The notes: generated by a model not told the origin, from the sequence alone. DNA of 64,000 bases from a virus (IMGVR_UViG_3300027963_000050), one strand, 5' to 3'. Positions 1 to 63,991 are shown, counted from the first letter of the stretch. Numbers and translations: made by a program.

Positions 1-335
1 GTATTTTTGAACGCTTGTTTGATTTTTTTACTAAAAACGTCATTAATCCATTCTTTTTCACCAACAACATCAATCCGATAACCATATGACATTATGTTTA
101 CTTGAAACAATGAATTCACAATACGAGTCAAATCTTCAACAAATTTGTTCATTTTATTACCAGAATTAACTAAATTTAGTTTATTTTCAAGTAAATCAGA
201 CATATTTAACCTAAAATCAAGTCTATATGAGTATCCTGTATCCCTTAAAAAACCAATAATACCTTCAGGAAGATGTTTCCCGAGGTATCTCTCAATAATT
301 TTTTTTAATTCAGGTGTTATTTCATTGTGACTCAT
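1..335 (-). CDS. hypothetical protein (3'-truncated by window edge)
   Basis: Minus-strand frame from ATG at 333-335 (MSHNEITPELKKIIERYLGKHLPEG...) stays open to position 1. The start overlaps the upstream stop (TAATG). Missing from the ORF track only because it is incomplete. Confidence 0.4.
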   Translation of the reverse strand, partial: MSHNEITPELKKIIERYLGKHLPEGIIGFLRDTGYSYRLDFRLNMSDLLENKLNLVNSGNKMNKFVEDLTRIVNSLFQVNIMSYGYRIDVVGEKEWINDVFSKKIKQAFKN

Positions 336-703
336 TAGTATTTCTCAATCGTTTTAACTTTATGGTTATATGTTTTTTCAAACCATTCTTTTAATAATGT
401 CTCAAAATGGTCTCCAAATATAGATTGAATGTTTTTAAGCCAATATTCACCGTATCTTAATATTGGTAAATCTTCTTCATTACCTTCATCACCCGGAGTA
501 TCTTGATATTGTAGAGTCCAATCATCATTTTCCCAATCTTCTTCAGTATCTTCATAAAAATTTAACACATCTAAATCAACATAACGACTTTTTTCTTGAA
601 CCCAATAATCATAAGACCTAGTACCTTTTTCTAAATCAGAATAAGGTACCATCATCTTTTCAAATATGGAAAATAATTTATCGTATTTAATATTAAGGTT
701 CAT
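335..703 (-). CDS. hypothetical acidic protein with family-2-like leader (MNLNIKYDKLFSIFEKMM)
   Basis: Track ORF 335..760. The internal Met at 701-703 gives a TAA-A-ATG junction with the upstream gene and the 'aaggttcat' start context shared with family-2 genes. Confidence 0.5.
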   Translation of the reverse strand: MNLNIKYDKLFSIFEKMMVPYSDLEKGTRSYDYWVQEKSRYVDLDVLNFYEDTEEDWENDDWTLQYQDTPGDEGNEEDLPILRYGEYWLKNIQSIFGDHFETLLKEWFEKTYNHKVKTIEKY

Positions 704-7614: not shown

Positions 7615-7642
7615 AGTAATAAATATATTGAAAATAAATTAA

Positions 7643-10752: not shown

Positions 10753-11187
10753 ATGAAAGTAATTATAACTGAAAGTAGAATAGAAGAAATAATACAAAAA
10801 TCCTTATCCATCGTATTTGGTGGGTTTGAGGATATAACTTGGAGTTGGGCCGACTTTAATTGTGGTTGGGGTGTTTGTTGTGATATATATGCCGTTGGAT
10901 TTGTTTTACCTAATACTGACCACGATGAATATATCTTTAAGTTGGCTGATGGTAAACACTATGATGATGATGGAGATTACCCGGAAGAAATGAAAGGTGA
11001 ACTACCTGAAGAATGTTATAACCAACCTGATTTATATGACCCCCGATTTGATACAATCGTATTCTATGAAGAGTATGCTGAGAAATTGGAAAACTTCTTG
11101 GGTCCGTTAGATAAAGTTAAAACCCCATTGTTAAATGTCCTAAATGAAATGTTTGGTATGGATGCTAAGGTAATTATTGTTATATAA
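10753..11187 (+). CDS. leader-family-1 tandem array member 5 (MKVIITESRIEE...)
   Basis: Track ORF 10645..11187. The ATG at 10753 follows the conserved junction TAATCCCCCACGCTTTATG and gives the leader. Confidence 0.65.
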   Translation: MKVIITESRIEEIIQKSLSIVFGGFEDITWSWADFNCGWGVCCDIYAVGFVLPNTDHDEYIFKLADGKHYDDDGDYPEEMKGELPEECYNQPDLYDPRFDTIVFYEEYAEKLENFLGPLDKVKTPLLNVLNEMFGMDAKVIIVI

Positions 11188-11281
11188 GGCTCAGGACTTA
11201 TATTGTATCTTTATAAGGTTTAGACCTTATATTACACATTTCGGTAATATTCGTGATTATTACACATTTTGGTAATAATAA

Positions 11282-11686
11282 CTATTTTCCGGTTCCTTTT
11301 TTGATTAAATTAAGACAGTCCGGTGGTATGTTTTGGAATGTTACCATATGTTTTGATACGGACCCAAAATGTTTATCTTTATACCACTTAACATCCGGAA
11401 TCATTCTTGTATTTATTTCCCATATATCATCATCATATGTAGAATCAAACCAAGCTCTTTTGTTTGTGGAGTTTGTTGCAAATATTGCTGGTTGACACTT
11501 ATATCCATAACCCACATAAATCTTATAACATTCCCCCGTTTTTGTTCTTAATCCATCTCTAAGTATATCCTCCCTGAACATTGGATTTGATTTGTGTATA
11601 ACAATATCGTTTGGAGTTACTTCTTTTCCCGCAGGTGAATATAATTCGTTCTCTATTAATATCTTTATTGTGTTAATTAATTTCAT
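11282..11686 (-). CDS. hypothetical protein (134 aa)
   Basis: ORF. TAATG-type close packing with the neighbour. Confidence 0.5.
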   Translation of the reverse strand: MKLINTIKILIENELYSPAGKEVTPNDIVIHKSNPMFREDILRDGLRTKTGECYKIYVGYGYKCQPAIFATNSTNKRAWFDSTYDDDIWEINTRMIPDVKWYKDKHFGSVSKHMVTFQNIPPDCLNLIKKGTGK

Positions 11687-11689
11687 ATC

Positions 11690-12109
11690 TTACTTATTGA
11701 TTAATATCTCAACCAATTCATCAAGTATTTGTCCCGGTAAACTTTCATATTTAACATAATAGTCGCCTAAGTGACCATTAAACTCATCCTCATATCTACT
11801 AATATCTACACTCGTTAGACCTAACCATTCTATTTGATGTTCCTCCCCATCTTCATCACTATAATGAAGTGGTTCTTCATCTATTTCTGTCATACCAAAC
11901 CCACTAGCATCACCTAATTCTCTCACTCTTTCTTTAATGTAGTTGACCTTATCAATCTCCTTTAAGTAGGGCTCAATCATATAATAATTTCCCGCCAATT
12001 TAATGGCGTTGGAGACTCCCATCTTATCAATCATTGTTCTGATGGTGTCTTCCTTTTTATCTTCACTGATTAAGGTGCTAATTCTTTGTATGTTTTCTAT
12101 TAGGTTCAT
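11690..12109 (-). CDS. leader-family-2 protein (MNLIENIQRISTLI...)
   Basis: N-terminal MNLxENIxRI leader with the 'ggttcat' start context. Acidic. Confidence 0.55.
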   Translation of the reverse strand: MNLIENIQRISTLISEDKKEDTIRTMIDKMGVSNAIKLAGNYYMIEPYLKEIDKVNYIKERVRELGDASGFGMTEIDEEPLHYSDEDGEEHQIEWLGLTSVDISRYEDEFNGHLGDYYVKYESLPGQILDELVEILINK

Positions 12110-12859
12110 TTATAATAATTCTATAATATCTTTAACAATATCGGTTTTATCTCTCCTGTCACCTTTATCATCGTAAACACTTATAATATGTTTGGCAATA
12201 TCTTTGTTTTTAACATCTTCTTCTTTAGATAATGGGACGTACTTATTCCAATCATTCTCCATATCTAATCCACCCCAACCTTTCATTTCTTCAGTGTCAG
12301 GTAAATCTTCTTTATCAAATTTACCACCCTCACCTTGTCTCATTCTTTGTAACTTACCAATAAGCTCAGTTTCTTTTTCTTTTGTATGTTTGTGGTTCCC
12401 ACTTTGTAACCCTTGAATGATTTGGTCCATAAACCCTGTCCATCTCTCTGTATTACCTTTTCTTAATAACTCCTCTGATTTATCAGAATCTTGAGACGGC
12501 ATTAATAAGAATACGTTAGGGTATTGACTTAATAATTCTTTCACTCCATCATTGTAAACGTGTCCCCCACCAAAATCTAATATTGATGGTGTATTGTATT
12601 TATTAAAGTCCGGTGATAAAACATATTTTACCAACTCAAACTCTTTTCCATCACCATAACCAAACTTCTCTTGTAATTTGTCAAGTATTACATACTCAAC
12701 ACCAAGTTGTTTTGATAGTTCTTCAGCAACGGTTGATTTTCCTACTGTTGGTGGTCCAATTAAGATGATTCTATTTGTTCCGGAATAACCTTTTTGTTCT
12801 TCCTCAACAAGTAATCCCATCATTTCTTTGATTCTATGTATATTCTCGTGTAAGTTCAT
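12110..12859 (-). CDS. leader-family-2 protein with P-loop NTPase / nucleotide-kinase-like domain
   Basis: Track ORF 12110..12937. The internal Met at 12857-12859 (MNLHENIHRIKEMMGL) gives a TAA-N-ATG junction. Walker A motif LIGPPTVGKST. Confidence 0.55.
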   Translation of the reverse strand: MNLHENIHRIKEMMGLLVEEEQKGYSGTNRIILIGPPTVGKSTVAEELSKQLGVEYVILDKLQEKFGYGDGKEFELVKYVLSPDFNKYNTPSILDFGGGHVYNDGVKELLSQYPNVFLLMPSQDSDKSEELLRKGNTERWTGFMDQIIQGLQSGNHKHTKEKETELIGKLQRMRQGEGGKFDKEDLPDTEEMKGWGGLDMENDWNKYVPLSKEEDVKNKDIAKHIISVYDDKGDRRDKTDIVKDIIELL

Positions 12860-12860
12860 A

Positions 12861-13631
12861 TTATTTTTCTTCCGGTAATTTAGTATCTTTGATAAACTTC
12901 TTGTGTGAATCTTTATACGATTTTTGGGTTTCATCATTCACATCTTTGGTGTATTGCCAATTCCAATACAAGTCATCGTTTGGTTTGAATCCGTAGAATC
13001 TATGAACTTCTTTCTGAACTTCAGTAACATTCTCACCATTCCAATTCTGACCAACACAAATAAATCCGGTCTCAATATCCTCAACAAGATTTGATTCCCC
13101 CAATGTTGCGTGTCTGTTCTCAATCCAAGTCAATCTCTCAATTAAGTTCTGATAGAACATATTGGTTTGTCCCCATCTAATTGAACTAAAGAATATAACT
13201 GTATCAGATTCAAACAACTCTTTGGATATCTTCCATAACTCATCCTTTGGATTGTTATAACTTGCCCAACATCTGTGGTCTCCGGATGGATTCTTTTTCT
13301 TATCTTTGAGCATCGCTTTAAGTAACCCACAGCTGTTCCCATCTTTTCTTGATACATTCCCCTCACAAGGAACTATATTAAGTTCTGACACATCAATTAA
13401 CACTGAGTTTTTTAACTCATCGTTAAGATACATTGCAATCATTTTTGATTTTGGTATATCAATATCTTCCTTATCAAATTGGAATCTATTGGAACAACTT
13501 AAGATTAAAACTTTCTTTTTCTTTTTAAGAATGTCTAAGGTAGTTTTGATTGATTTCCACGCATCGGATTGAGCCATCTCTTCCGAAATCATCATTTCCC
13601 TTATTCTTTGTATGTTTTCTTGTAAGTTCAT
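12861..13631 (-). CDS. leader-family-2 protein, flavodoxin-like fold (NAD(P)H-dependent FMN reductase-like?)
   Basis: Internal Met at 13629-13631 (MNLQENIQRIREMM). KKVLILSCSNR ... DTVIFFSSIRWGQTNMFYQNLIERL resembles the FMN_red / flavodoxin_2 architecture. Weak call. Confidence 0.4.
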   Translation of the reverse strand: MNLQENIQRIREMMISEEMAQSDAWKSIKTTLDILKKKKKVLILSCSNRFQFDKEDIDIPKSKMIAMYLNDELKNSVLIDVSELNIVPCEGNVSRKDGNSCGLLKAMLKDKKKNPSGDHRCWASYNNPKDELWKISKELFESDTVIFFSSIRWGQTNMFYQNLIERLTWIENRHATLGESNLVEDIETGFICVGQNWNGENVTEVQKEVHRFYGFKPNDDLYWNWQYTKDVNDETQKSYKDSHKKFIKDTKLPEEK

Positions 13632-13632
13632 A

Positions 13633-14529
13633 TTAATATCTCCAACTTTCATCATCAAACTTAGTTTTATTTAATGTATCTTTATAATTTGATTCTTCTG
13701 TAAACCCTCCTCTTTCATTCACCCAATTATTAATATATTCAGGGTCACTATTAATATATACATTTCCTGTTGATATATTTTCTAATTTTGATTTAATGTT
13801 TTTAATCTCATCATCATTTAATGTTGTCTCTGAACCAACAACCCCATTTTTAATTCCTGACCCCGGTTCAATAGGATTAAATAACACATCCTTTATTTTA
13901 ATGTGTTGTACTATTTTTTCATTCCACGGTTGTGAACTTCCACCAATATTTGTTTTACCTAAATTTCTTGCGTTATTCCAATGTTTTATTTTATCTGCAA
14001 AAGTTTTTACTAATTCGTCAATTTTTCTATAGTAATGTATAAGTATTGTTTTATTTAAATTATTGTCGTTTTCACTAATTTCTTTATATATCTCATACTT
14101 TATTGGTGAAAATTTATTTAAAAATTCAGGAGGAAAATTAAGAGAACCAATCCATCTTCTACCACTTTCATCTGGTTGACTCATAGCGTCGGATGTTGAA
14201 TCAAAAACTAATTCACCTTCTATTTGAAATAGAACTCCTCCTTTTGTATTTATTCCTTTTAAATTAGATAAAAAATCTTTACCAATATATGTAAAAGTTG
14301 ATATTGGTTTTTCTTTACCAATAATAGATTTAATTTGGTCTATACGTGAAATATCAGTTATATGGAATGTTGTTATTTTTTCTCCACCATACAAATAATC
14401 AATAATACTATCAGTTAAAGGTATATTACCACTAAAGATTTGGTCCCTAATATTACTTTGATTTGAAAGGTCTTCATTGATTAAACCCATCATTGTTCTA
14501 ATCCTTTGTATGTTTTCATTTAAGTTCAT
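13633..14529 (-). CDS. leader-family-2 protein (MNLNENIQRIRTMMGL...), hypothetical
   Basis: Internal Met at 14527-14529. The leader is conserved at nucleotide level with its neighbours. Confidence 0.55.
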   Translation of the reverse strand: MNLNENIQRIRTMMGLINEDLSNQSNIRDQIFSGNIPLTDSIIDYLYGGEKITTFHITDISRIDQIKSIIGKEKPISTFTYIGKDFLSNLKGINTKGGVLFQIEGELVFDSTSDAMSQPDESGRRWIGSLNFPPEFLNKFSPIKYEIYKEISENDNNLNKTILIHYYRKIDELVKTFADKIKHWNNARNLGKTNIGGSSQPWNEKIVQHIKIKDVLFNPIEPGSGIKNGVVGSETTLNDDEIKNIKSKLENISTGNVYINSDPEYINNWVNERGGFTEESNYKDTLNKTKFDDESWRY

Positions 14530-14560
14530 AGTAATAAATATCTCGTTCTTTGACATATTG

Positions 14561-16204
14561 TTATAATCCGTATCTTACTGTACCAGCGGTATATATTGTT
14601 GATATCTGAGCAGCTGTTAATGTTTGATTATACACTTTAACTGTTGATATGTTTCCATTAAAATACGCATTACTTGCAGCTCCATTTCTACCAATGTTAA
14701 CCACACTACTACTATCATTAATAATATTACCAGGATTTACTGAAGATGTATAGGTTTGAGAACCATCTAGATATGTTGTAAAATTCGTACCATTAAAAGT
14801 CATTGTCATATTATGCCAAACATTCGTGGATATTGACCCTCCCGTAGTAGTATAGATACCAGTACTTGTATATAAAACAGAAAATAAACTTGATGTACTA
14901 ACAGCAAGACCCCAACCACCTGAAGTACCTCCAAATTTTATAAGGTAATTGGTCCCACTTTGTGCCGAACTTATTTTAAACCAAACACTAACTGTTAAAT
15001 TAGTTGTAATTGAAGATATATTAGTATATGACGTTAAATCTATATAATCATTTGACCCGTCAAATAAAAATGACCTTTGACCATCTCTTGATAAAGCAAC
15101 ACCATTTGTTAATATTCCGTTAGTATTATTCCCACTAATATCGTTAGCAGTACTTGCCGTCATTACCTGTTTGTTTGTATTATTACCATCTAAATATAAA
15201 ACTAACCCATTTGTTGGTATGAATCTTTGAAGTCCTGCGTAGTAATTTTGTAATATTTCTGCATTTGAAAGTGCTCTTTCATAAACTTGTAAACTATACA
15301 CATAACCTTCATAATATAAGTTAGGAATATGTGTTGCACATAAATTTTGGTTATCAGAATTTAATGTTTGTCCTGACAAATTTAATGAACCTGTTGTAGA
15401 TGTGGTATTAACATATAAAGTATGGACTCCGGTAGTTTTATTAAAAATACCCGCCAACATACAATTACTACCCATAGTTATAGGTAAACTAACATTTAAT
15501 AGTGTGTTTGATGAACCTCTAACTTGAAAATATGCGGTTGTAGAGTTTTGAATTGTTAACTGTATTAACTCAGTAATTGAATTTCTATACGAGTATACAA
15601 CTCCCGGAGGACTTACTGGCGTATTTGGATTTATAAAACAAATAACAGTTAATTCAGTTGGATTAGAAATGGGAATATTACTACCCACATTTACATAGGC
15701 ATTACTACCATTACTAAAATATAATCTACCACCATTTGTTGAGTCATATGGAGCACTATTAGCGATTGAACCTCCACCAGCCGCCCCACTCAACTCAGCA
15801 ATTGCACTACCGGTTTTAGGATAACAAGACACAATTCCCATATCCAAATAAATTGTCAAACCACTTGTGACAATATTTGGCACATCCACATTAAGACAAG
15901 TACCTGCACTGGGGTTGTCTTTAAAATAAGTTAACGCTTGCCCTATTGTTGTATTCCCACTCCCACCTAATTGATTGGAATATGTTATTAATTCTGAATC
16001 ATTTGCCGCAGCATAAAGTGTTGGACTACTAGCTCCATTGGATTTGTATATTGTATAACCACTAACATTAGGTGTTTTACCATTCCAAAATCCGGTAACT
16101 GAAGTTAATCCATAACCGCCTTGATTAACTCCGACGGCAAAAGACCCTAACCTAATTGTGTTTATTGATGTTAAGACGGGGGAATATTTAATTACGTTTG
16201 CCAT
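14561..16204 (-). CDS. putative tail fibre / receptor-binding protein with two concanavalin-A-like (LamG-type) lectin domains
   Basis: 547 aa, rich in S/T/N/G. Motifs LTIYLDMG...YFSNGSNAYVNV and LVLYLDGNNTN...FLFDGSNDYIDL with a C-terminal ...NAEILQNYYAGLQRF are typical of the ConA-like/LamG jelly-roll. Paralog of 17192..19120. Confidence 0.5.
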   Translation of the reverse strand: MANVIKYSPVLTSINTIRLGSFAVGVNQGGYGLTSVTGFWNGKTPNVSGYTIYKSNGASSPTLYAAANDSELITYSNQLGGSGNTTIGQALTYFKDNPSAGTCLNVDVPNIVTSGLTIYLDMGIVSCYPKTGSAIAELSGAAGGGSIANSAPYDSTNGGRLYFSNGSNAYVNVGSNIPISNPTELTVICFINPNTPVSPPGVVYSYRNSITELIQLTIQNSTTAYFQVRGSSNTLLNVSLPITMGSNCMLAGIFNKTTGVHTLYVNTTSTTGSLNLSGQTLNSDNQNLCATHIPNLYYEGYVYSLQVYERALSNAEILQNYYAGLQRFIPTNGLVLYLDGNNTNKQVMTASTANDISGNNTNGILTNGVALSRDGQRSFLFDGSNDYIDLTSYTNISSITTNLTVSVWFKISSAQSGTNYLIKFGGTSGGWGLAVSTSSLFSVLYTSTGIYTTTGGSISTNVWHNMTMTFNGTNFTTYLDGSQTYTSSVNPGNIINDSSSVVNIGRNGAASNAYFNGNISTVKVYNQTLTAAQISTIYTAGTVRYGL

Positions 16205-16264
16205 ACTATAAGTTTATATAATAAATATAAAAAAAAAGAGAATATTACTTCCTCTCGTTTAATT

Positions 16265-16546
16265 TTATCTACCTTCATATTGCCATAGAACAGCATTACA
16301 ATAACTATGGACCGCACCTTCTGTCATATTTGTCTTGTGACAATGTTGAAGGTGGATTGGATGGTCTAAAAACCCTTGCGGAAATAAACCCCAAGTAATT
16401 GGTTTTTTTGTTATCCTTTCGGGTGCACCTTCATATAATGTTTCACCACAATACATACACAGATTGTTCTGTTCCTTAATGTATTGTAGTCTAACTTCCC
16501 TCCGTTGTGATGGTGTTAATTTTGTATAGTCCGTTGGTAAATTCAT
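16265..16546 (-). CDS. HNH endonuclease (93 aa)
   Basis: CMYCGETL ... HLQHCHKTNMTEGAVHSYCN: CxxC plus the H-N-H zinc-finger nuclease signature. Sits between the two fibre paralogs. Confidence 0.6.
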   Translation of the reverse strand: MNLPTDYTKLTPSQRREVRLQYIKEQNNLCMYCGETLYEGAPERITKKPITWGLFPQGFLDHPIHLQHCHKTNMTEGAVHSYCNAVLWQYEGR

Positions 16547-16579
16547 AAAGATTTATTTTGGTAAATTAAAATAATATTG

Positions 16580-16587
16580 TATCTTTG
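16580..16587 (+). promoter_or_regulatory. TAtcTTTG -7 box for the plus-strand cassette 16611..17163
   Basis: attgTAtcTTTGtaatc, 24 nt before the ATG at 16611. Confidence 0.4.
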
Positions 16588-16610
16588 TAATCTAATTAAA
16601 ATAATCAGTT

Positions 16611-16775
16611 ATGTCAAATACTATGTCAGTTGATTCATCAACATTCTCAAGATTAAAAAAAGAGTATCAAAATGCTGTGGCTAATTCTAATAACACCTTC
16701 ATTTTTGATGGTAATGAACTTCTAACCACCTACGCAAAATATCTAATCGAGTACTTAACCCCTATGTTTAAATAA
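16611..16775 (+). CDS. small hypothetical protein (54 aa)
   Basis: ATG 24 nt after the promoter box. The stop overlaps the next ATG (TAAAATG). Below the track size cut-off. Confidence 0.3.
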   Translation: MSNTMSVDSSTFSRLKKEYQNAVANSNNTFIFDGNELLTTYAKYLIEYLTPMFK

Positions 16776-16776
16776 A

Positions 16777-17163
16777 ATGGATGATTACCACGCAATTTAT
16801 GTAACAAAAGTTCTTCGTATTATTAAAAAGTATATGAAAAAACATCCTATAACCGGAATGGTTGAAATGCCTCAGTGGTTTCAATTTCATTATAAGGTTA
16901 AAGGGGTTAGATTTAAAAACGATTGCTATTCTTGGAATAGAGTTCTTTATGTTAATATTGAAGTGTCAGACAAATATTGGAGAATATTAAACCCTATCTC
17001 AGGAATTTCAGGATGGGGTCATTCACAATATTATATGTGGTCATCAAGAAGAAGAAACCAATATATTAGAGATTATGTGAAAAAAGATGTGGAAAAATCA
17101 ATTGGTTTATTTACAATCCCTATTAGAGTAGAGATTGGAACAATTAAGATGGTGGGAGAATAA
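16777..17163 (+). CDS. hypothetical protein (128 aa)
   Basis: ORF followed by a GGTGGG-N7-CCCACC terminator hairpin at 17148-17178. Confidence 0.45.
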   Translation: MDDYHAIYVTKVLRIIKKYMKKHPITGMVEMPQWFQFHYKVKGVRFKNDCYSWNRVLYVNIEVSDKYWRILNPISGISGWGHSQYYMWSSRRRNQYIRDYVKKDVEKSIGLFTIPIRVEIGTIKMVGE

Positions 17164-17178
17164 CCCACCATTTTTGTT
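17148..17178. terminator. intrinsic terminator hairpin (GGTGGG-agaataa-CCCACC-ATTTTTG)
   Basis: 6-bp GC stem plus T-run at the end of 16777..17163. Confidence 0.5.
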
Positions 17179-17191
17179 CTTTGACATATTG

Positions 17192-19120
17192 TTATAAGTT
17201 GTGTCTTTGTTTACCCGCATTGTAAATAGTTAAAACTTCTGAAGCCGTTAAAAGATTCTGATAACTTCTAATTACTGACATATAACCTTTAAAATAATTA
17301 ATACTTGAACCACTGTCTCTACCAATATTAACAATTGTACTACCACCATTAGTACATAGATTACCCGCATATGTTGATGATGTAGCAACGACAGAACCAT
17401 CTAAATAAAGAGTATAAGCACCCGCATAATCAAAAGTCATTGTCACATTATGCCAAACATTTAACGATATCACACCCCCTGCACCACTACCACCACCAAT
17501 ATAACTACCGGCAGTTGTATAAAAACTATAATAAAGACCCGAAGAAGAAACTCCAATTGACCATCCCGCAGATGTTGCTCCATACTTTATAATTGTATTT
17601 GAACCAACCGGTGTTGTATAAAGTTTAAACCAAATACTAATACTAAAATAACTACCTTGGTATGTCAAATGATAAGGTGACCCACAATCAATATAATTAT
17701 TTACACCATCAAAAGAAAATGATGTTCCGGCTTCTCTATGAGCAAGACCCATACCATTCATTAACGAACAATTATTAAGGTCAAAACCCATATCATATGC
17801 GGTAGTTGGAGTTATTACCCTTGTGTTTGTGTTTTCACCATCTAACCATAAATTTATAGTATAAGTATTCCCATTAATAAATCTTTGAAGTCCTGCATAA
17901 TAGTTTTGTAATATTTCAACAACTGAGAGTTGTCTGTTATATACCATAACATTTGCTATGTTACCAACCATTGCTTCGGTTGAAACTTCGGAGGATAATT
18001 TATAACCAACCGCCGAATCTAAAACACCCCCTAATGTAACTAATGACGCACCCAATTGTACACCATCAATATATATATAAGCATTTAAATTATTGAACAC
18101 CCCAACCATATTATACCAAACATTATTTGTAAAAGTTTTAGCTCTCGACAATACAAATGTACTACCACCCATTTTAAAAAAAAACTCAGCATTTGACCCA
18201 TTTTTTCTAATACAAGCAATTTCATTACCAACCGTCATAAATCTCATAATTGTATTGGGTTGAGAAGTAAATTTGAACCAAGCAGATACTGTAACACCAG
18301 CAGTTAAAGTCATTGCTGTGGAACCGGTTACGTGTTGATTATTTGAGGCAGCAAAAACTAACGAACCAAAATTACCTGAATCATATGTTGGCCCTGTATT
18401 AACAAATGTTCCATCATTACTATTTCCACTTAAATCTTTCCAAGTAGAACCTCCTTTAGGATATGATGGTGTAAATCCCGCGTCTAAATTAAGAGTTAAA
18501 CCACTTGCAACAATATTTGGATAATCTGTATTAACACAAAGTTTATCTGTTGATGTATTAAAATAATTCAAAGCATCATATTCTGTAGTTATACCAACAC
18601 CACCTAATTGAGTCGCGAAATAAATTAAATCACTTAGAGAGTTTGAAATATACATAGTCGGAGTACTTGTTCCATTACCAACATACACAACAGCACCATC
18701 TCGATTGCTTGGTGATTTTCCGTTCCAAAAACCTGTTGATGATGTTAAACCATATCCACCTTGATTAACACCAATAGCCCCATAGTTACTACTAACTATT
18801 ATAGGTAGGGTTGATACCACCGCATTTAAACAAATACCTTGTACACTTGCAGTACTAAGAGTACTAGCGTATAAAATATTGTTTTTATAATAATAAAGCC
18901 CAGTTAACCCACTAGCACAAAACGCATTTTGGAAAACACCTGAACCACTAAACAACACAACGTTATCCACTTGACCGGGACAAGGAGTTATACCCACAAT
19001 AACTTTGTTAGTAAAAGTTGCATTCCCACCAGTATTTCCTGTTGCAGAATTTATGTCAGTAGCACTAATTGTTGCCACATAACTATTACAAAATGTAGTA
19101 TTTTTAATTGGATACGCCAT
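17192..19120 (-). CDS. putative tail fibre / receptor-binding protein, ConA-like lectin domains (paralog of 14561..16204)
   Basis: 642 aa. Shares N-terminal IGVNQGGYGLTS.TGFWNGK and LT[IL].LD.G...YF motifs with 14561..16204. The 3' flank cgttctttgacatattgttataa is duplicated at 14532 and 17176. Confidence 0.5.
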   Translation of the reverse strand: MAYPIKNTTFCNSYVATISATDINSATGNTGGNATFTNKVIVGITPCPGQVDNVVLFSGSGVFQNAFCASGLTGLYYYKNNILYASTLSTASVQGICLNAVVSTLPIIVSSNYGAIGVNQGGYGLTSSTGFWNGKSPSNRDGAVVYVGNGTSTPTMYISNSLSDLIYFATQLGGVGITTEYDALNYFNTSTDKLCVNTDYPNIVASGLTLNLDAGFTPSYPKGGSTWKDLSGNSNDGTFVNTGPTYDSGNFGSLVFAASNNQHVTGSTAMTLTAGVTVSAWFKFTSQPNTIMRFMTVGNEIACIRKNGSNAEFFFKMGGSTFVLSRAKTFTNNVWYNMVGVFNNLNAYIYIDGVQLGASLVTLGGVLDSAVGYKLSSEVSTEAMVGNIANVMVYNRQLSVVEILQNYYAGLQRFINGNTYTINLWLDGENTNTRVITPTTAYDMGFDLNNCSLMNGMGLAHREAGTSFSFDGVNNYIDCGSPYHLTYQGSYFSISIWFKLYTTPVGSNTIIKYGATSAGWSIGVSSSGLYYSFYTTAGSYIGGGSGAGGVISLNVWHNVTMTFDYAGAYTLYLDGSVVATSSTYAGNLCTNGGSTIVNIGRDSGSSINYFKGYMSVIRSYQNLLTASEVLTIYNAGKQRHNL

Positions 19121-19380
19121 TATTCAATAAGAAATGGTGTTGACCACTCTAATGTAGATAGAATATCTAATATCTCATCATAGGTATAAGGACCTTCCTT
19201 TGTTGTTAATGTTGAAACACATTCCGGTGTTTCACCATCCCATTTAACAAACGTTTTGGTTTGGTCAACGGATTTTCTAACTGTTTCTTCAGATGTTTCT
19301 AATACTTTAGTAAAATCAATCTTGTTTAATTCTGATATGTTGAATATCATAAATTGTCTGTTTTCGTAATCTTGTGTCAT
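19120..19380 (-). CDS. hypothetical protein (86 aa)
   Basis: ORF. ATGA overlap with the upstream gene. Confidence 0.45.
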   Translation of the reverse strand: MTQDYENRQFMIFNISELNKIDFTKVLETSEETVRKSVDQTKTFVKWDGETPECVSTLTTKEGPYTYDEILDILSTLEWSTPFLIE

Positions 19381-19384
19381 AATA

Positions 19385-19780
19385 TTATCCTATATTTGCT
19401 GCTGTTATTCCTCTAACACCATAGTCAGGGAAATGTTTTTTGAAGAAGTCCTGAATCGCATATTTAAAGTGTCTTGACGCATAACCATAAGGTACAAATT
19501 TCACTAACATATCTTCTAATGAATAATCCCACCATATTTGCTCATTCTTTTTATCATACCTCATTAAATATTTATTATCGTTCTTGTCATTAAATAATAC
19601 TATTGTATCATCATTTTCACTATAAGCATTTATCTCCATACTTAAAAACTTAATCATAATTTTTTGCCACTTTGGATATTCCTCTTCATACTCTTGGTCA
19701 TAACGTTCCCTTGAGATATGAGCGTCTTTACCTTCGTCCATTATTGATTTGATTCTATCTATGTTCTCGTATAAATTCAT
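19385..19780 (-). CDS. leader-family-2 protein (MNLYENIDRIKSIM...)
   Basis: Internal Met at 19778-19780 with the 'aaattcat' context. Confidence 0.5.
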   Translation of the reverse strand: MNLYENIDRIKSIMDEGKDAHISRERYDQEYEEEYPKWQKIMIKFLSMEINAYSENDDTIVLFNDKNDNKYLMRYDKKNEQIWWDYSLEDMLVKFVPYGYASRHFKYAIQDFFKKHFPDYGVRGITAANIG

Positions 19781-19799
19781 TATAACTTTATTCTGTTTA

Positions 19800-20405
19800 T
19801 CACACACAAGAAACGAAACTAGTAACAGTTACAACTTGACCATTTTCATTTGTTACTGTACCATTATCACCGAAACCACAATTAGTTTCACTTAAAACCC
19901 CAAATCCTGTGTATGGTATTGTTAATTCTGGATTAGTGAATAGGTATGAACCAACAACTATTGTTTGGTCATTAGAATAAAATGTTACCGGAGTCTCATC
20001 ACAACAAGTTACATATGAAGTGAATGTGTATACTACTGTTGGATAACTATTCCAAAATCCGTTTGACGATAACCAATTTGAAGCATTTACAGCAGTAGAA
20101 AATGTTTGTGGATTACCGTAAACTCTTGAAACAATTTGAGCCCAATTAATAAATGAGCTGGGTGTTAAATCACTTCTATAAAACCCAACTGAAGCATAAA
20201 CACCCGATATAGGCGTTGGTTGAGTATTTCCCGAAACAGGTGCCGCAATTACATAACCTAACTCTTCATCAGGTCCGTTCCACCAAACAACACCACCACC
20301 CAAATCACGAGCGCCAATTGGGCCAATGGCTAATGTACCAACTTGAGTTGCAGAAGCAATTGGTGTTAATGAAGGATTATACGCGAAAGGTCTTGCTCTT
20401 GACAT
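19800..20405 (-). CDS. fibre-module protein sharing N-terminus (MSRARPFAYNP...WWNGPDEELGYVIAAPVSGNTQPTP) with 20433..22016
   Basis: 201 aa. N-terminal about 60 aa paralogous to the next gene. WWNGP motif related to FWNGK of the ConA-like genes. Confidence 0.5.
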   Translation of the reverse strand: MSRARPFAYNPSLTPIASATQVGTLAIGPIGARDLGGGVVWWNGPDEELGYVIAAPVSGNTQPTPISGVYASVGFYRSDLTPSSFINWAQIVSRVYGNPQTFSTAVNASNWLSSNGFWNSYPTVVYTFTSYVTCCDETPVTFYSNDQTIVVGSYLFTNPELTIPYTGFGVLSETNCGFGDNGTVTNENGQVVTVTSFVSCV

Positions 20406-20432
20406 AGTTATTTAATTTTATTTAATTTTATT

Positions 20433-22016
20433 TTATCTTACCCAATACCATATTATTCCCGGATTTGGCATACAACCTTCAACACCACAATTACCACTAA
20501 TCCAAGGTGCTGGGTTCCAACCCCCATTAGTAATTATAGTTCCCCACCATTCAGAGTTGTAAATATATGAAGTTGTTAATATACCACTATTATTACCACC
20601 ACGGTAAGGCATTATTTGTTCAATACTAGAACTACCATACTCCCAAGTACCAAATTTAATATCAAGAGTAATACTTGTTTGAGTGTTAGCTGTATGAACA
20701 AACGAATAAGATTGAGGTGCTGACCATATACCACCAAATTGGTTTCTTTCGTAAGCATCTATCATATATTGAAACGTTAATCCGGTGTCTTTAATATAAT
20801 CAGCATAAGCAACTATTGAATAGTTTTCACCATTTATAACAGGATTAAATTCATTTAATAATATAGAGTTTTCGTATGTCCAATCGTGAGTATCTTGATT
20901 TGTAACTAATAATGTCCATCCACCTCCATCTGTTGTCATATCAGCGTATATTTGGAATGGTGTTCCACCACTAATATTACCATTTACAATCCAATATAAA
21001 CCATCGGTTGATGCTGAAAAATTTGTTTTAATTTGAAGAGCATTATCACCCGCAGTTTGTGGTGTTGTACCATCTTTATATGAATGCCAATAACCGTGGT
21101 CGGTTAACCAAACACCCGCTAAAGTAGCGTTTGAAAAAGTTTGATTAAAATATTTGTTCACTAACGCAATAAATGTTGAGTCTTTAAATGGGTCGACTTG
21201 GTTTTTGGTTCCAATAAATTTAACTGACGCAGTTAGGTTTGAACCCAATAATGTATAACCTTCAGGTACACCATAAGTGGATGTGTTTAAAATTTCCATT
21301 GTACCAATGGTTCCCGGACAAAATGCAGGATAAATGTTTGTTAAACTAAAAGTACTTAATCCACTATTCCCTGATTCCGGAGTTTGGTCTATGTCATTAT
21401 TCCAATAACCACCATTTACTCTTATCCATACTTTAGTAGAACTACAATTTATTACAAAATCAACAATATCGTTGCTTACCCAAGTTGGTAATCCCGATAC
21501 TTCAACGGTTCCATTTTTCCAATAATGTCCAGCAACATCAACACCAATACTTTTATCATCATTACCAGGATAACCTAAAGGTCCTTCATAATTCATAGAT
21601 GATTTTCCAAAACCTATGAAAGCGGGTTCTCCAGGAAATGGAGAAGGGGGTTCTTGGTATTGAACACTAAACATAACTTTATCGTTATTATTTATCAATG
21701 TATTACCTAATACTGTTTGTTGTTTATTGGTGGGTTGATACGCAATTTGGTCAGAAGATAATATAATACTACTTCCTTTATAAACATTACTTAATGTTAA
21801 ATGTCCATCGGGAGCCCCACTAAATAATGGAGTTGGTTGAGTATTTCCCGAAACAGGAATTGCAATAACATATCCTTGCTCTTCATCAGGACCATTCCAA
21901 AATTGAGGTGAATCGGTAAATCCTGTTATTGGAGCACCAACGGCTAAATCACCAACTTGTATAGTACCACTTATTGGGTCTCCCGGATTATATGCGAATG
22001 GTCTTGCTTTAGACAT
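20433..22016 (-). CDS. fibre-module protein with fibrinogen-related-domain-like region (..YADMTTDGGGWTLLV..)
   Basis: 527 aa. The N-terminus is paralogous to 19800..20405. The internal PFQIYADMTTDGGGWTLL matches the FReD hallmark (DxDTDGGGWT[VL]). Confidence 0.5.
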   Translation of the reverse strand: MSKARPFAYNPGDPISGTIQVGDLAVGAPITGFTDSPQFWNGPDEEQGYVIAIPVSGNTQPTPLFSGAPDGHLTLSNVYKGSSIILSSDQIAYQPTNKQQTVLGNTLINNNDKVMFSVQYQEPPSPFPGEPAFIGFGKSSMNYEGPLGYPGNDDKSIGVDVAGHYWKNGTVEVSGLPTWVSNDIVDFVINCSSTKVWIRVNGGYWNNDIDQTPESGNSGLSTFSLTNIYPAFCPGTIGTMEILNTSTYGVPEGYTLLGSNLTASVKFIGTKNQVDPFKDSTFIALVNKYFNQTFSNATLAGVWLTDHGYWHSYKDGTTPQTAGDNALQIKTNFSASTDGLYWIVNGNISGGTPFQIYADMTTDGGGWTLLVTNQDTHDWTYENSILLNEFNPVINGENYSIVAYADYIKDTGLTFQYMIDAYERNQFGGIWSAPQSYSFVHTANTQTSITLDIKFGTWEYGSSSIEQIMPYRGGNNSGILTTSYIYNSEWWGTIITNGGWNPAPWISGNCGVEGCMPNPGIIWYWVR

Positions 22017-22495: not shown

Positions 22496-22831
22496 TTAAT
22501 CATAATCGTGTTTAGCAAGTATATAAACTTTATCAGCCTCTATTCTAATCCTATCTTTAAACCACCACCAAATAACTCTTTCAAGTTCTTCTTCACTAAA
22601 TGAAAATACTTTTAATGGTAACCACACATCTCTATAAACATACACAGCATCATTATTTTCCAACCATTTTAATACAATTTTACCGTCTTTATTTTTAAAA
22701 GTTATTCTATGATTACTAAATACAGAATCTTTATTTAAATCAACATCTTCACGAGTCAATTGATTTATTTTATCATCTAATATCTTATATGCTAATTGGT
22801 ATCTTTTATTCTCTGTTATTAGTATCTTCAT
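22496..22831 (-). CDS. leader-family-1 protein (MKILITENKRYQ...)
   Basis: Leader. First of four tandem family-1 genes on the minus strand. Confidence 0.6.
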   Translation of the reverse strand: MKILITENKRYQLAYKILDDKINQLTREDVDLNKDSVFSNHRITFKNKDGKIVLKWLENNDAVYVYRDVWLPLKVFSFSEEELERVIWWWFKDRIRIEADKVYILAKHDYD

Positions 22832-22833
22832 AA

Positions 22834-23223
22834 TTAAATGTAATCATTAGTTATTTGAGCAACTTCTAATCCTGAATTTTCTTCAAACCATTCCTTGAAT
22901 ACCGGTAACCATTTGTCACCAAATAAAGATGTTAATTTTTCACCAACCGAAGGATATACTAACAATAAAGGACATTTATAATTATGTAGGTGTCCGTAAC
23001 CCGCAAAAAATTCATCTTCCGGACCAGCATTGGCATTACACCCGTAATAGATATAAGAGTCTAAATCATTAATAAAAAAAACAAGGTCACCATACCTATC
23101 AACATCTTCTTGATAAGAGCCGTGTCTTGTGTTTTCATTCCACCCATAATCCGGATAATATGTATCATCCAAATACTTACGGATGATTTGATTAACTCTA
23201 TTCTCAGATATTATTATTTTCAT
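22834..23223 (-). CDS. leader-family-1 protein (MKIIISENRVNQ...)
   Basis: Leader. TAATTATG junction. Confidence 0.6.
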   Translation of the reverse strand: MKIIISENRVNQIIRKYLDDTYYPDYGWNENTRHGSYQEDVDRYGDLVFFINDLDSYIYYGCNANAGPEDEFFAGYGHLHNYKCPLLLVYPSVGEKLTSLFGDKWLPVFKEWFEENSGLEVAQITNDYI

Positions 23224-23527
23224 TTTTCATCATTTTACCTTCTAAACCCCAATCTGAAGCGTATTCATCAAGTTCAAGACCAAACATAGGGTTAAGTTGA
23301 GTCTTTATTTTCTTTAACGTATAACTTGGACTGTGAGTCATTTTACCGTCAATAAAACCAATATGTATTTTGGTTCTACTTATAATATTTTCACCTCGTT
23401 TGTTCTCACCACTAGCCAATTGAATTTGTTTTGTTTCAAAGGTCACTTTTCCCACCATAGGAAATGTAGTGAGAATATACTTCTCAATTAAATCATTTCT
23501 TCGTTCTTCTTTAATTAATATCTTCAT
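23204..23527 (-). CDS. leader-family-1 protein (MKILIKEERRND...)
   Basis: Leader variant. TAATG junction. Confidence 0.55.
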   Translation of the reverse strand: MKILIKEERRNDLIEKYILTTFPMVGKVTFETKQIQLASGENKRGENIISRTKIHIGFIDGKMTHSPSYTLKKIKTQLNPMFGLELDEYASDWGLEGKMMKNENNNI

Positions 23528-24799: not shown

Positions 24800-24820
24800 A
24801 ATATATAAATATCCGGTAAA

Positions 24821-26664: not shown

Positions 26665-26680
26665 ATCTATAAATATAACA

Positions 26681-30534: not shown

Positions 30535-30593
30535 ACCTATAAATATACCGGAACTAAATTATTGGTGTGTATATTTATTGTTAAATATTAATT

Positions 30594-41392: not shown

Positions 41393-41427
41393 AAAAAAAA
41401 GGAACTAAATGTTCCTCTTTTTTTTAA
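41393..41427. terminator. intrinsic terminator hairpin (A8-AGGAAC-taaat-GTTCCT-T8)
   Basis: Between 40597..41343 and 41424..42344. Confidence 0.6.
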
Positions 41428-59524: not shown

Positions 59525-59622
59525 AATTTCTTTTTTATAAAGTATAAGAAATAAAAAGTGAAAAAGCAACTTTCTCTTTCAAATATTTTTAACTATATTT
59601 ATTTTAAATTAAATTTATAACT

Positions 59623-63166: not shown

Positions 63167-63991
63167 TTATTGAGTTATTTGATTATAACCCATCAACGAT
63201 TTCATTCTATTAAATTCTTCACTAATTAATTTTTCTTGTTTTTCATTACTCTCAGTTTTAAGATGTAACCCATTTCCCGATTCTTGACCTGTTTTATCAC
63301 TTATAACAGGTTGAGGGGCTTTATTGTATGCCGCTCTTTTAGCTTTATTGTACGCACCTTTCTTACGAGTTTTATTTAATTTTTTATTCTCATCAGTTTC
63401 AACAGCGTTAGCCCATTCTGAATTATTTCCAGTTTTTGATGAACCTTCAATATTATTATCCATCCACTCTTCATTAGGATGAATTTCATCATAATCTAAA
63501 GTTTGCATCCCAGGTCTTAAGTAATCGTCAATAAATTCTTTACCATCGTCAGAAAGTTCATAAGCAGTTTTCTTCATTTTTTCTAACTCTCCATTCCCTT
63601 TAGGGAATACTTTTGGTTCCATTGAATATTCACCTTTAGAACCGTCTTTAAGGTAATCTTTCATTTTTTTAGTAACATCTTTAATGTAATCGTCATTTTC
63701 TTTACCAGAACCTTTGTGAGCCTTCTCATACGCCGAATAACCTTTAGGTGTTCCACCAATTGGTTTTAATTTTGTGTCGGTTGTTTTTTCAATCGCTTCA
63801 GTTTTTTGTTCTTTAACAATTCTTTCAATCATAGATACTAATTCACTTTCAGTTAATCTATAAGATTCTTTAACCTGATATTCTTTACCATCCACTTCAA
63901 ATGAATCTTCCCCACTTTTTTTAGCGTTAGCCAAGGCCCCTGAAAACGCATTACCTTCGTCTGTTTCAGTTTTTTTACCCTTTCTTAACAT
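63167..63991 (-). CDS. Lys/Glu-rich hypothetical protein (274 aa)
   Basis: ORF. Its start lies near the right window edge. Confidence 0.5.
   Translation of the reverse strand: MLRKGKKTETDEGNAFSGALANAKKSGEDSFEVDGKEYQVKESYRLTESELVSMIERIVKEQKTEAIEKTTDTKLKPIGGTPKGYSAYEKAHKGSGKENDDYIKDVTKKMKDYLKDGSKGEYSMEPKVFPKGNGELEKMKKTAYELSDDGKEFIDDYLRPGMQTLDYDEIHPNEEWMDNNIEGSSKTGNNSEWANAVETDENKKLNKTRKKGAYNKAKRAAYNKAPQPVISDKTGQESGNGLHLKTESNEKQEKLISEEFNRMKSLMGYNQITQ

Follow-up and report, generated by a model that had tools for sequence, protein, structure and literature searches.

A short N-terminal leader on unrelated proteins of an uncultured T4-like phage: a candidate capsid-targeting peptide resembling the scaffold C-terminus

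The stretch of viral DNA analyzed here (the window, 64 kb or 64,000 nucleotides of IMGVR_UViG_3300027963_000050) belongs to an uncultured T4-like phage and contains five unrelated genes, all on the minus strand, that have in common an N-terminal tag of roughly 19 residues. Their starts, at positions 14529, 13631, 12859, 12109 and 19780, are in each case an internal ATG which opens the signature MNL-x-ENI-x-RI. The first of the four contiguous members, gene 13633..14529 (298 aa), carries the leader MNLNENIQRIRTMMGLINE (14473..14529, minus strand; found by a DNA pattern and by a leader HMM with E 1.8e-8), and its product has no known domain, searches of Pfam and PHROGs being without match. It is followed by gene 12861..13631 (256 aa; leader MNLQENIQRIREMMISEE at 13578..13631, minus strand, found by both pattern and HMM), which encodes a protein with a flavodoxin-like FMN-reductase fold, by gene 12110..12859 (249 aa; leader MNLHENIHRIKEMMGLLVE at 12803..12859, minus strand, HMM E 4e-10), whose product is P-loop kinase-like, and by gene 11690..12109, which encodes an acidic protein of 139 aa. 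The last of these bears a divergent variant of the leader, MNLIENIQRISTLISE (12062..12109, minus strand; HMM E 1e-3), which is kept by its orthologues in contigs L068, L106 and L121. The fifth member is the dispersed gene 19385..19780 (131 aa; leader MNLYENIDRIKSIMDE at 19733..19780, minus strand, HMM E 1.2e-8). This gene sits amid LamG-domain, structural-looking genes.

A degenerate DNA pattern matches the same five sites only and finds none in 100 shuffles, and the leader HMM, though trained without window sequences, likewise retrieves only these five genes of the window (E 4e-10 to 1e-3). The earlier note had proposed a family of six; its five minus-strand genes are retained, and the weaker variant at 335..703 (MNLNIKYDKLF...) was left out because the independent HMM does not detect it. 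Two further sites of the window bear on the family. The cluster continues with gene 11282..11686, which begins with an alternative leader, MKLINTIKILIENE (11645..11686, minus strand), and the remainder of its product, here termed the cargo, bears the MNL leader in other phages: its BLASTP alignment with L029:92-532 (52% identity, E 4e-46) starts directly after the two differing leaders. A leader-like peptide, EEFNRMKSLMGYNQITQ (63170..63220, minus strand), forms the C-terminus of the 274-aa product of gene 63167..63991, which finds no match in Pfam, and is assigned to the family only tentatively.

The proposal that the internal methionine, rather than the upstream alternative codon, is the real start is borne out by the TAA-T-ATG and TAA-ATG junctions between the genes and by the position of the motif in database proteins, where it begins at residues 1-3 in 124 of 131. 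The internal ATGs are thus credible starts of all five window leader genes, and correct the annotation, given that automatic ORF calls take the upstream starts. A promoter-like box, ATATTTAT (14534..14541, minus strand), lies 4 nt upstream of the ATG at 14529, and its placement between this ATG and the upstream alternative start supports the internal start; it probably opens the string of genes running from 14529 to 11282. The sequence TATTTAT occurs within 45 nt upstream of 28–31% of ORFs as against 1.9% of random windows. As a mark of the leader genes it was rejected, its frequency being similar before leader ORFs (31%) and other ORFs (28%), and it therefore offers no evidence on timing.

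Amino-acid identity among the five window proteins falls from 69% over residues 1-14 to 9% over residues 21-40, collapsing past about residue 19. The claim that the leader is shared and the proteins downstream are unrelated therefore holds, in that similarity ends after the leader. The consensus of the family, MNLQENIxRIKEMMG[LIV]IxE, heads 128 ORFs of IMG/VR contigs, the cargoes of which fall into at least 58 clusters unrelated by BLAST, and it was found in 131 representative protein clusters at 50% identity. Descent of all these proteins from one family, as diverged copies best conserved at the N-terminus, could account for certain cargo groups that recur, namely an acidic domain typified by GVSDAIK..YY.IEPYLK and a group with HDTSWENEEG; but the 58 unrelated clusters, their different folds (flavodoxin-like, P-loop kinase, GNAT, and DUF2237 from residue 20) and the drop to 9% identity straight after the leader refute it for the set as a whole. 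A single paralogous family was accordingly rejected, and we accord it a negligible probability.

The leader appears to be a feature of uncultured phages. A survey of cellular genomes (596 Gb) yielded a single leader match, which is a phage fragment. Neither the region nor the flavodoxin-like protein had a megablast or tblastn match among 50,697 cultured-phage records, and a tblastn search of cultured phages with the 20-aa leader consensus was equally without match, while the leader of phage immuto (see below), used as a control, was found by the same method. PHROGs provided nothing useful for the leader proteins. The literal motif strings were not found in a collection of 8 million papers, and searches of the literature on the T4 capsid targeting sequence (CTS) brought up no comparable leader family. 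A virion proteome was looked for, too, and none was found for a phage with this leader or for immuto.

The identifications of two of the cargoes as a P-loop and a flavodoxin-like protein were upheld. The product of 12110..12859 shows weak P-loop kinase-type Pfam matches (AAA_18/SKI) at residues 31-65, and that of 12861..13631 is matched by Foldseek to FMN reductases (E about 1e-5). In the AF2 model of the latter, residues 3-16 form a helix with a pLDDT of 40–48, detached from a domain that reaches a pLDDT of 96. This protein has 1848 homologous clusters and is highly conserved, with 75–96% identity over more than 100 clusters. Across the family the leader precedes a full DUF2237 domain (from residue 20 onward), P-loop kinases, two GNATs, a flavodoxin-like reductase, and proteins with weak ART-PolyVal matches (these, like the M23 matches, being below the Pfam gathering thresholds). 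Orthologues of a given cargo bear differing leaders. In a few other proteins, such as an M23-like peptidase, the leader peptide is C-terminal, and in fused ORFs it is internal. With its charged and amphipathic composition (E5, R9, K11, E12) and no hydrophobic core, it is unlike a Sec, Tat or lipoprotein signal peptide, in which a hydrophobic h-region of about 10–15 residues follows a basic n-region and leads to a signal-peptidase or lipobox site; the true signal peptides of the window, such as MKKILLVFALFLTTLMYSQ, look different. Other stereotyped N-terminal helices are also seen in these phages, namely MKIIITES.. and ..ILREE.

At the nucleotide level, the window leader genes are 75% identical over nt 1-42 and about 30% beyond, with pairwise values of 70–87% over the first 30 nt. 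The same peptides written with background codons would be expected to show 71.7 +/- 2.1% identity over nt 1-42, and the observed 75% is close to this (P = 0.07). Hence, the description of these 5' ends as nearly identical DNA was an overstatement, the 75–80% identity of the leaders being no more than peptide and codon usage predict. This bears on the view that gene conversion keeps the common 5' ends alike and that these are recombination junctions, which would serve the shuffling of cassettes. The occurrence of one leader on unrelated cargo, together with that of differing leaders on orthologous cargo, shows that there has been recombination at the leader or close to it, and the T4 genes ipII and ipIII have 32 identical nucleotides in common. 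However, where residues are identical the codons agree in 64% of cases within a locus as against 59% between loci, which speaks against homogenization and does not sustain the ongoing gene conversion proposed earlier; orthologous leaders retain their own codons, orthologues being more alike than paralogues. Furthermore, the pairwise identities over nt 1-42 (62–83%) do not exceed what the peptide predicts, and exactly identical stretches are neither long nor numerous enough to sustain efficient homologous exchange. We regard this explanation as very improbable.

An RNA-level role of the 5' end, also suggested in the earlier note, fared no better, the 5' regions being unstructured, without match in Rfam, and encoding a peptide that also occurs at protein C-termini. 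Minimum free energies of the five leader genes range from -1.1 to -4.7 kcal/mol (z between -0.07 and +1.24), and a search of 11000-20500 against Rfam returned no match at E <= 1. A more specific version of this idea holds that the A-rich, unstructured first 40 nt act as a translation-initiation enhancer suited to hosts that make no use of Shine-Dalgarno pairing, and that the peptide is a by-product. In its favor, folding of the 5' region is weaker than in shuffles in four of the five genes, TATTTAT stands 4–6 nt before the ATG in many genes, suggesting near-leaderless mRNAs, and leader codons differ from those of the cargo (AAC at N2, 69% vs 24%, and at N6, 67% vs 24%; ATA at I7, 93% vs 44%; CTA at L3, 39% vs 10%). 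This start-proximal bias of the leader genes (AAC, CTA, ATA) is, however, for the most part common to all gene starts in these phages, most of it (AAC, CTA, ATC) being present in codons 2-9 of 204 non-leader genes. Moreover, it is the residues that are fixed and the synonymous sites that are free (GAA and GAG stand at 53/47 for E5, and R9 and I10 vary too), the peptide is also found at C-termini and, in fused ORFs, at internal positions, and within the contiguous block of four genes three are linked to the preceding gene by translational coupling and do not lie at mRNA 5' ends. We consider an enhancer improbable.

At the close of the leader, a motif of the form [LIVM]xE ends at residues 16-22, mostly at 18-19, in 39 of the 58 cargo clusters (67%) and 103 of the 128 ORFs (80%), as compared with 12–13% in control windows; one-third of the cargo clusters are without a clean copy. 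The earlier note had suggested a leader of prohead-protease or packaging type, with the cut at MNLQE|N. In general terms this idea is supported by this end motif and by the head module and scaffold likeness described below, but the cut itself was misplaced, since the motif that is conserved and enriched is the later one and not MNLQE. As [LIVM]xE closes the leader, a cut there would take off the entire tag. A comparable motif is present in the capsid protein of related phages, whose N-terminal region contains an invariant (Y/H)LINE-AA. We infer that the capsid protein may be cleaved at LINE|AA; against this, MAFFT does not align the T4 cleavage site FLTE|AE exactly with this motif but some 10 residues downstream of it. 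The corresponding place reads IVSE-AN in immuto and LISE-AN in Microcystis phage Mel-JY01. The leader of gene 13633..14529 closes with this very tetrapeptide, LINE. The N-termini of the protease and the scaffold carry ILIE and SILE, and in T4 gp21 carries LLIE and gp22 LIAE.

The head genes in question come from related contigs such as L113, which share leader genes with the window at 82–84% identity (84% for the flavodoxin-like one). A T4-type head module, absent from the 64-kb window itself, is found in these contigs within about 2 kb of the flavodoxin-like leader gene. Its portal is of the T4 type (Pfam 1.7e-75), and its prohead protease belongs to S77 (Pfam 1.1e-22) and is 31% identical to T4 gp21 (E 2e-23); the other members are an acidic scaffold protein and a Gp23 capsid protein (Pfam 3.9e-75). 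The window represents a distant, uncultured lineage of T4-like jumbo phages that probably infects Bacteroidota.

The core of the leader resembles the C-terminus of this scaffold, ..FSRIKEMMKKIK, which in the window lineage has the general form ..YENPQFxR[IM]K[ED][ML]MxKIK; the protease of the same lineage ends in ..DRMKKLMG.LD.FLSK*. The likeness of leader and scaffold is short here, essentially xRIKEMM, and the leader HMM gives the scaffold end only about 5 bits (i-E 1.4–3.5), which is not significant. Since in the window lineage it is only suggestive by HMM, the case rests on a sister lineage, which includes the cultured Flavobacterium phage immuto (vB_FspM_immuto, host Flavobacterium sp. 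LMO8). In that lineage leaders of the form ..RRMQKLAGIITE[SG] face a scaffold that ends in ..RRMQKLAGIIK*. The ending ..RMQKLAGIIK* is found on at least 120 ORFs, most of which are scaffold-like by their N-terminus, and a Gp23 motif adjoins 100 of 120 such loci. Of 139 occurrences of the peptide RRMQKLAGIITE itself, 133 are N-terminal, and these leaders are distributed over 77 cargo clusters. In immuto, two unrelated proteins carry the leader SEQFRRMQKLAGII, which agrees with the scaffold end SEQVSRWQKLAGII in 11 of 14 positions. Each leader type excludes the other, over 1.08 and 1.06 Mb of loci. Leader and scaffold match in a lineage-specific manner in the two lineages compared. In Mel-JY01, with the scaffold end ..ERMKKLAGIVK*, no matching leaders were detected at the sensitivity of tblastn.

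The leader is, in our view, probably a propeptide that targets proteins to the capsid (prohead core), similar to the CTS of T4 and acting through mimicry of the scaffold C-terminus. Residues 3-16 are predicted to form an amphipathic helix, with the hydrophobic positions L3, I7, I10, M14 and L/I17 at 4-3-4-3 spacing, which would imitate the C-terminal peptide of the phage's own scaffold and thus dock to the same partner in the assembling prohead, be it a Gp23-type capsid protein or the scaffold core. A protein fused behind the helix would be co-assembled into the head, where the S77 (gp21-type) prohead protease may cut after the closing [LIV]-x-E and free the cargo; the latter would stay in the head and presumably enter the host along with the DNA on ejection. 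What the sequences show is the leader on unrelated cargo, the head module of related contigs, the enriched protease-type motif and the lineage-specific match of leader and scaffold end; the steps from binding and encapsidation to cleavage and ejection are inferred. The restriction of the leader to viruses and the low-confidence helix set apart from the folded domain in the AF2 model also count in favor of capsid targeting, as does the occurrence of the peptide at either terminus, which indicates position independence. Against it stand, besides the shortness of the leader-scaffold likeness in the window lineage, the offset of LINE from the aligned T4 site and the third of cargo clusters without a clean [LIVM]xE, the conservation of the flavodoxin-like cargo, which is unlike that of the fast-evolving T4 internal proteins, and the large share of genes, perhaps too many, that would have to be considered packaged if the MKIIITE and ILREE leaders were added.

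Alternatively, the leader could be a generic docking or oligomerization helix acting in the infected cell, with a phage hub, chaperone or compartment as its binding partner, instead of loading the capsid. Its resemblance to the ends of scaffold and protease would then reflect a shared helix type or a shared folding or assembly chaperone. The amphipathic character and heptad-like spacing of the leader would suit such a helix, as would the stereotyped helices on many other proteins of these phages, the DnaJ encoded in the window and the GroEL/ES of immuto, and the metabolic appearance of the conserved enzyme cargo. What it leaves unexplained is the copying of the extreme C-terminus of the scaffold in two lineages with different sequences, and the protease-type [LIV]xE after the leader, which is absent from the scaffold end. 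We judge a docking helix of this kind unlikely.

The T4 CTS peptides, of 10–19 residues, direct proteins of otherwise diverse kinds into the core, and gp21 cleaves them off (PMC9026906, PMC3012670). Those of IPI, IPII, IPIII and the Alt propeptide are, like the leader, short N-terminal peptides on otherwise unrelated proteins of a phage with a head of the gp20/gp21/gp22/gp23 type (for the leader, as judged from head genes in related contigs), and both end, the leader in most cases, in an L/I-x-E of the type cut by the gp21 (S77) protease. IPII and IPIII have MKTYQEFIAE|A in common, identical also in DNA, and the scaffold gp22 begins with MLKEQLIAE|A; the CTS (..EFIAE|A) thus resembles the scaffold N-terminus, whereas the leader resembles the C-terminus. 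Beyond M-[KN] and the terminal x-E there is no recognizable similarity between the leader and MKTYQEFIAE or MKTFKEF, and the leader, with its 14-residue helix and G[LIV]IxE, is longer. Unlike the CTS, it is now and then found at the C-terminus and is known from sequence alone. Its cargo extends to at least 58–131 families, many recognizably enzymatic and one highly conserved, as opposed to the handful of small, basic proteins in T4.

In other systems, too, a terminal peptide serves to enter a shell. The scaffolding protein of P22 has a C-terminal coat-binding helix-turn-helix by means of which foreign cargo has been brought into P22 particles, and the HK97 prohead protease has a C-terminal targeting tail. 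As is proposed for the leader, the terminal peptide of a core component there binds the shell interior, and its fusion suffices for encapsidation. Such loading is engineered or confined to a single protein, whereas the leader phages, in which scaffold end, protease end and leader have one motif in common, have apparently furnished dozens of their own genes with copies of the peptide and added a protease site. The cargo-loading peptides of encapsulins, which are short, terminal and found on diverse enzymes, direct these into an HK97-fold shell from either terminus; they differ from the leader in sequence, in the lack of removal by a protease, and in serving a bacterial nanocompartment with no co-packaged DNA. 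In giant phages the propeptides are long and not known to form a single shared short tag, the cleavage motif being S/A/G-x-E. For phiKZ, 201phi2-1 and SPN3US, two reports describe many head-internal proteins cut after Glu by a gp21-like protease, and large numbers of proteins packaged in jumbo capsids (PMC5694885, PMC7411985).

On a broader scale, a large aquatic clade of T4-like phages, with genomes up to about 320 kb and Bacteroidota-type hosts, might possess an address code for the virion interior that can be read from sequence, a generalization to which we give somewhat less than an even chance. Such a code would consist of a copy of the scaffold C-terminus with a protease site, placed on dozens to hundreds of enzyme families and co-evolving with the scaffold in each lineage; its cargo would include kinases, acetyltransferases, candidate ADP-ribosyltransferases, redox enzymes and peptidases. 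If the capsid-targeting interpretation is correct, the CTS principle would not be a curiosity of T-even phages but a general and greatly expanded strategy of abundant uncultured phages, and the head-borne, host-injected proteins of the latter could be predicted from metagenome sequence alone. Leader-tagged proteins would then be prime candidates for anti-defence and takeover effectors, and the leaders themselves might serve as short natural cargo-loading handles for T4-like capsids. The apparent derivation of the tag from the capsid-binding end of the scaffold offers a mechanistic clue which, to our knowledge, the T4 system has not made explicit. In the sister lineage the leader is carried by gp083 and gp230 of Flavobacterium phage immuto, which, being cultured, makes this interpretation testable in culture.

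The window is a gene-dense stretch of 31.8% G+C, with no tRNA genes and with most genes on the minus strand, and it contains five minus-strand genes that share an MNL-x-ENI-x-RI leader beginning at an internal ATG. These are 13633..14529, whose leader ends in G[LIV]INE and whose cargo (the protein downstream of the leader) has no known domain; 12861..13631, with a flavodoxin-like FMN-reductase fold (AF2 and Foldseek); 12110..12859, which is P-loop kinase-like; and 11690..12109 and 19385..19780, both with no known domain. The earlier note's descriptions of the kinase-like and flavodoxin-like cargo both hold. A degenerate DNA pattern for the leader peptide recovered exactly these five sites in the window, with none in 100 shuffles, and a profile built from non-window leaders only recovered exactly the same genes (E 4e-10 to 1e-3); a sixth copy that had been placed at 335..703 was not detected by this profile. 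As had been proposed, the likeness is confined to the leader: amino acid identity falls from 69% over residues 1-14 to 9% over residues 21-40, and nucleotide identity from 75-80% over the first 30-42 nt to about 30% past that, and simple paralogy of these genes is refuted. In an AF2 model, leader residues 3-16 are helical (pLDDT 40-48) and detached from the confidently modelled domain. The internal ATGs are credible starts because the junctions between contiguous leader genes read TAA-T-ATG or TAA-ATG, the ATATTTAT box of the first leader gene lies between the upstream alternative start and the internal ATG, and the motif starts at residues 1-3 in 124 of 131 database protein clusters, all of which agrees with the choice of the internal Met made from the sequence alone.

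The suggestion that the DNA likeness exceeds what the peptide demands was not sustained, the observed 75% comparing with 71.7 +/- 2.1% from synonymous resampling of the five peptides (P = 0.07). Among 123 distinct metagenome leaders, the synonymous sites of E5, R9 and I10 vary freely, while N2 and N6 prefer AAC, L3 uses CTA above background and I7 is ATA in 93%. Most of this bias (AAC, CTA, ATC) recurs at codons 2-9 in a set of 204 unrelated genes whose starts are confident, and is thus largely a trait of gene starts in general; the ATA preference alone is distinct. Ongoing gene conversion, also suggested earlier, has left no sign, as synonymous-site identity is 64% between paralogues within a locus versus 59% between different contigs and orthologous leaders retain their own codon choices; nor did an RNA-level function of the 5' end find support, the 5' regions being unstructured and matching no Rfam family. 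A role as a translation enhancer may contribute, though as an account of the leader it is improbable, and one as a recombination junction may do so too with slightly poorer prospects still; both leave unexplained the peptide-level conservation, the C-terminal copies and the lack of homogenisation. Leader-type peptides also form the C-terminal end of some proteins, among them an M23-like peptidase and the product of window gene 63167..63991, and lie inside fused ORFs, where they still begin with Met. These copies argue against a purely mRNA-level role, and the peptide appears to work at either protein end.

Scaffold-type C-terminal peptides are seen on non-scaffold proteins in the database loci L254 and L256 (ORFs of about 221 aa), L225:3229-4188, L024:4867-5457 and L082 (a 283-aa ORF), with such termini as ..EEIQRIKTLMK in the M23-like peptidase and ..EEFLRMQKLAGIITE in a 319-aa protein. 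The leader lies mid-protein between two domains in L105:58-870 and in the database proteins P0194 and P0268, which look like fusions of two adjacent genes and which, if [LIV]xE is cleaved, would act as small polyproteins.

Scanned with the degenerate pattern, IMG/VR yielded at least 120 loci and at least 160 matches. Nearly all matches listed are N-termini of ORFs 100-520 aa long; the contigs have 27-39% G+C and reach 321 kb, and the extended consensus is MNLQENIxRIKEMMG[LIV][ILN]xE. The 128 distinct complete ORFs among the matches listed form 58 clusters that show no BLAST similarity to one another outside the leader; Pfam matches to the cargo, several of them scoring below gathering thresholds, include DUF2237 (a complete domain from residue 20), two GNAT acetyltransferases, P-loop kinases and weak ART-PolyVal matches. 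Searched exhaustively with a profile, 1.84 billion representatives gave 131 clusters at E <= 1e-3, a lower bound given so short a motif. The leader was not found in 50,697 cultured-phage records and is virtually absent from bacterial and archaeal genomes (596 Gb), the single match being a phage fragment (L121; CAZYEM010000367.1, 3283 bp) in an 'uncultured Bacteroides sp.' MAG, which reflects either mis-binning or a hint of the host. This fragment comes from a near relative of the window's phage, the two flavodoxin-like proteins being 92% identical, and has four leader genes in a different order. Leaders are exchangeable between cargo: some orthologues of the flavodoxin-like protein have MIKLTDLINEMM in place of the MNL leader, and window gene 11282..11686, next in the cluster, begins MKLINTIKILIENE and is 52% identical to proteins with the MNL leader, in an alignment that begins exactly past both leaders.

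Related contigs, which share with the window the flavodoxin-like leader gene, at 84% identity, and a further gene, at 82%, carry within about 2 kb of the former a T4-type head module that lies outside the 64-kb window. Pfam recognises in it a Gp20 portal (1.7e-75), a Gp23 capsid protein (3.9e-75) and a prohead protease of the Peptidase_S77 family (1.1e-22), which has 31% identity to T4 gp21, and an acidic scaffold occupies the position of gp22. Genes resembling gp32 and UvsX/RecA are present elsewhere in the contig set. The closest cultured capsid proteins, about 40% identical, are those of Microcystis phage Mel-JY01 and Flavobacterium phage immuto, and immuto's host, together with Flavobacterium-style signal peptides in the window, suggests a Bacteroidota host.

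The scaffold of the window's lineage ends in ..YENPQFxR[IM]K[ED][ML]MxKIK in 8/8 variants, and the leader HMM scores about 5 bits on this end; taken alone, this resemblance of the leader core to the scaffold's extreme C-terminus is only suggestive. The S77 protease of the lineage ends in ..DRM(K/S/V)KLMG.LD.FLSK (L005, L040, L062, L081, L103, L104, L113; e.g. L113:6798-7481), a motif that resembles both leader and scaffold and is placed where T4 gp21 has its processed C-terminus. It is the sister lineage, to which immuto belongs, that makes the case for the apparent likeness. The immuto scaffold-position protein ends in ..SEQVSRWQKLAGIIK, and two otherwise unrelated immuto proteins (NC_055915.1 25061-25456 and 111675-112139) start with MKKQILSEQF(R/K)RMQ(K/F)LAGIITES. 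Among the IMG/VR matches listed (L129-L248), this second leader type, M..E.LRMQ[MK]LAGIITE[SG], is N-terminal in 133 of 139 and heads at least 77 unrelated cargo clusters, while at least 120 ORFs (L249-L368) end in ..RMQKLAGIIK, with an identical core; most of those listed have scaffold-like N-termini, and their loci contain the Gp23 motif in 100 of 120 cases and S77 motifs in 56. The two leader types never occur together in 1.08 and 1.06 Mb of loci among the matches listed, which suggests that each lineage's leader is a copy of its own scaffold end, with the final K and stop swapped for T-E plus cargo; this covariation spans two lineages, with T4 as an analogue.

The leader also appears to be closed by a protease-type motif: among the matches listed, 39 of 58 cargo clusters and 103 of 128 ORFs have a [LIVM]xE that terminates within residues 16-22, versus 12-13% of control windows, and many leaders finish exactly in G[LIV]INE. 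[quoted passage not shown] Near their N-termini the lineage's protease has ILIE and its scaffold SILE, the T4 counterparts being LLIE in gp21 and LIAE in gp22.

The internal proteins of T4 bear N-terminal capsid targeting sequences of 10-19 residues that bind the scaffolding core, suffice for the packaging of foreign proteins and are cleaved off by gp21; beyond this sequence, the internal proteins of T-even phages are diverse (PMC9026906, PMC3012670). T4 ipII and ipIII have 32 identical nt in common, coding MKTYQEFIAE|A, and the scaffold gp22 starts with MLKEQLIAE|A. The logic is common to both systems but the sequence is not: the MNL leader mimics the C-terminus of the scaffold whereas the T4 peptide resembles its N-terminus, and the leader is longer, has a far larger range of cargo, part of it enzymatic, and is matched by a sister type in a neighbouring lineage. 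Placement of the leader in the functional class of T4-type capsid targeting sequences is supported on the criteria open to sequence analysis, and the encapsidation and cleavage that define the class are predicted. That it is instead an intracellular docking helix is rather unlikely, since this leaves the mimicry of the scaffold end and the appended protease motif unexplained.

Ten window genes (starts at 1076, 1663, 4459, 4794, 9747, 10107, 10437, 10753, 29822 and 38227) begin with an exact copy of another N-terminal family, MK[LIV]IITE[SN], and variants occur too, also at 22496-23850, mostly on proteins of about 100 aa. Because the family aligns with MMGVINES, the final eight residues of the MNL leader, it may be that signal pared down to a minimal [LIV]I-T-E, or else just the opening strand of its domain; if this family also marks packaged proteins, the packaged set would be very large. 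A third type, M(K/E)(D/E)LI(K/R)xILREE, is found on the minus strand at 24458-24799, 23850-24458 and 41424-42344; in other contigs it grades into the MNL type (MNLQENIRRILREE..), and it also occurs internally in multi-domain ORFs.

A TATTTAT box precedes the ATG in about 28% of ORFs of at least 100 aa in this phage group versus 1.9% of random 45-nt windows, lying 4-6 nt upstream with a second mode at 14-17 nt. Boxes are seen at 14534-14541, 2725-2732, 7619-7626, 24805-24812, 26669-26676, 30539-30546 and other places in the window, and upstream of the portal, protease and scaffold genes of L113. The box, the reverse complement of the T4 late-promoter box TATAAATA, resembles a promoter element, in which case the mRNAs would be nearly leaderless.

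The leader genes sit amid genes for large Laminin_G_3 (concanavalin-like) proteins (14561-16204, 17192-19120, 19800-20405, 20433-22016), probably fibre or adhesin genes, whose products have in common an 'NYYAGLQRF' junction and 'MS(R/K)ARPFAYNP' N-termini, one with weak SPRY and fibrinogen-C matches. The window further encodes a glutamine synthetase, a full-length DnaJ, DUF5856, a Band-7/SPFH protein, a calcineurin-like phosphoesterase and two DNA methyltransferases (N6_N4 and D12 class), jointly at 49292-50404, 59847-60770, 42346-42810, 31574-32413, 28754-29473, 47903-48766 and 58676-59569.
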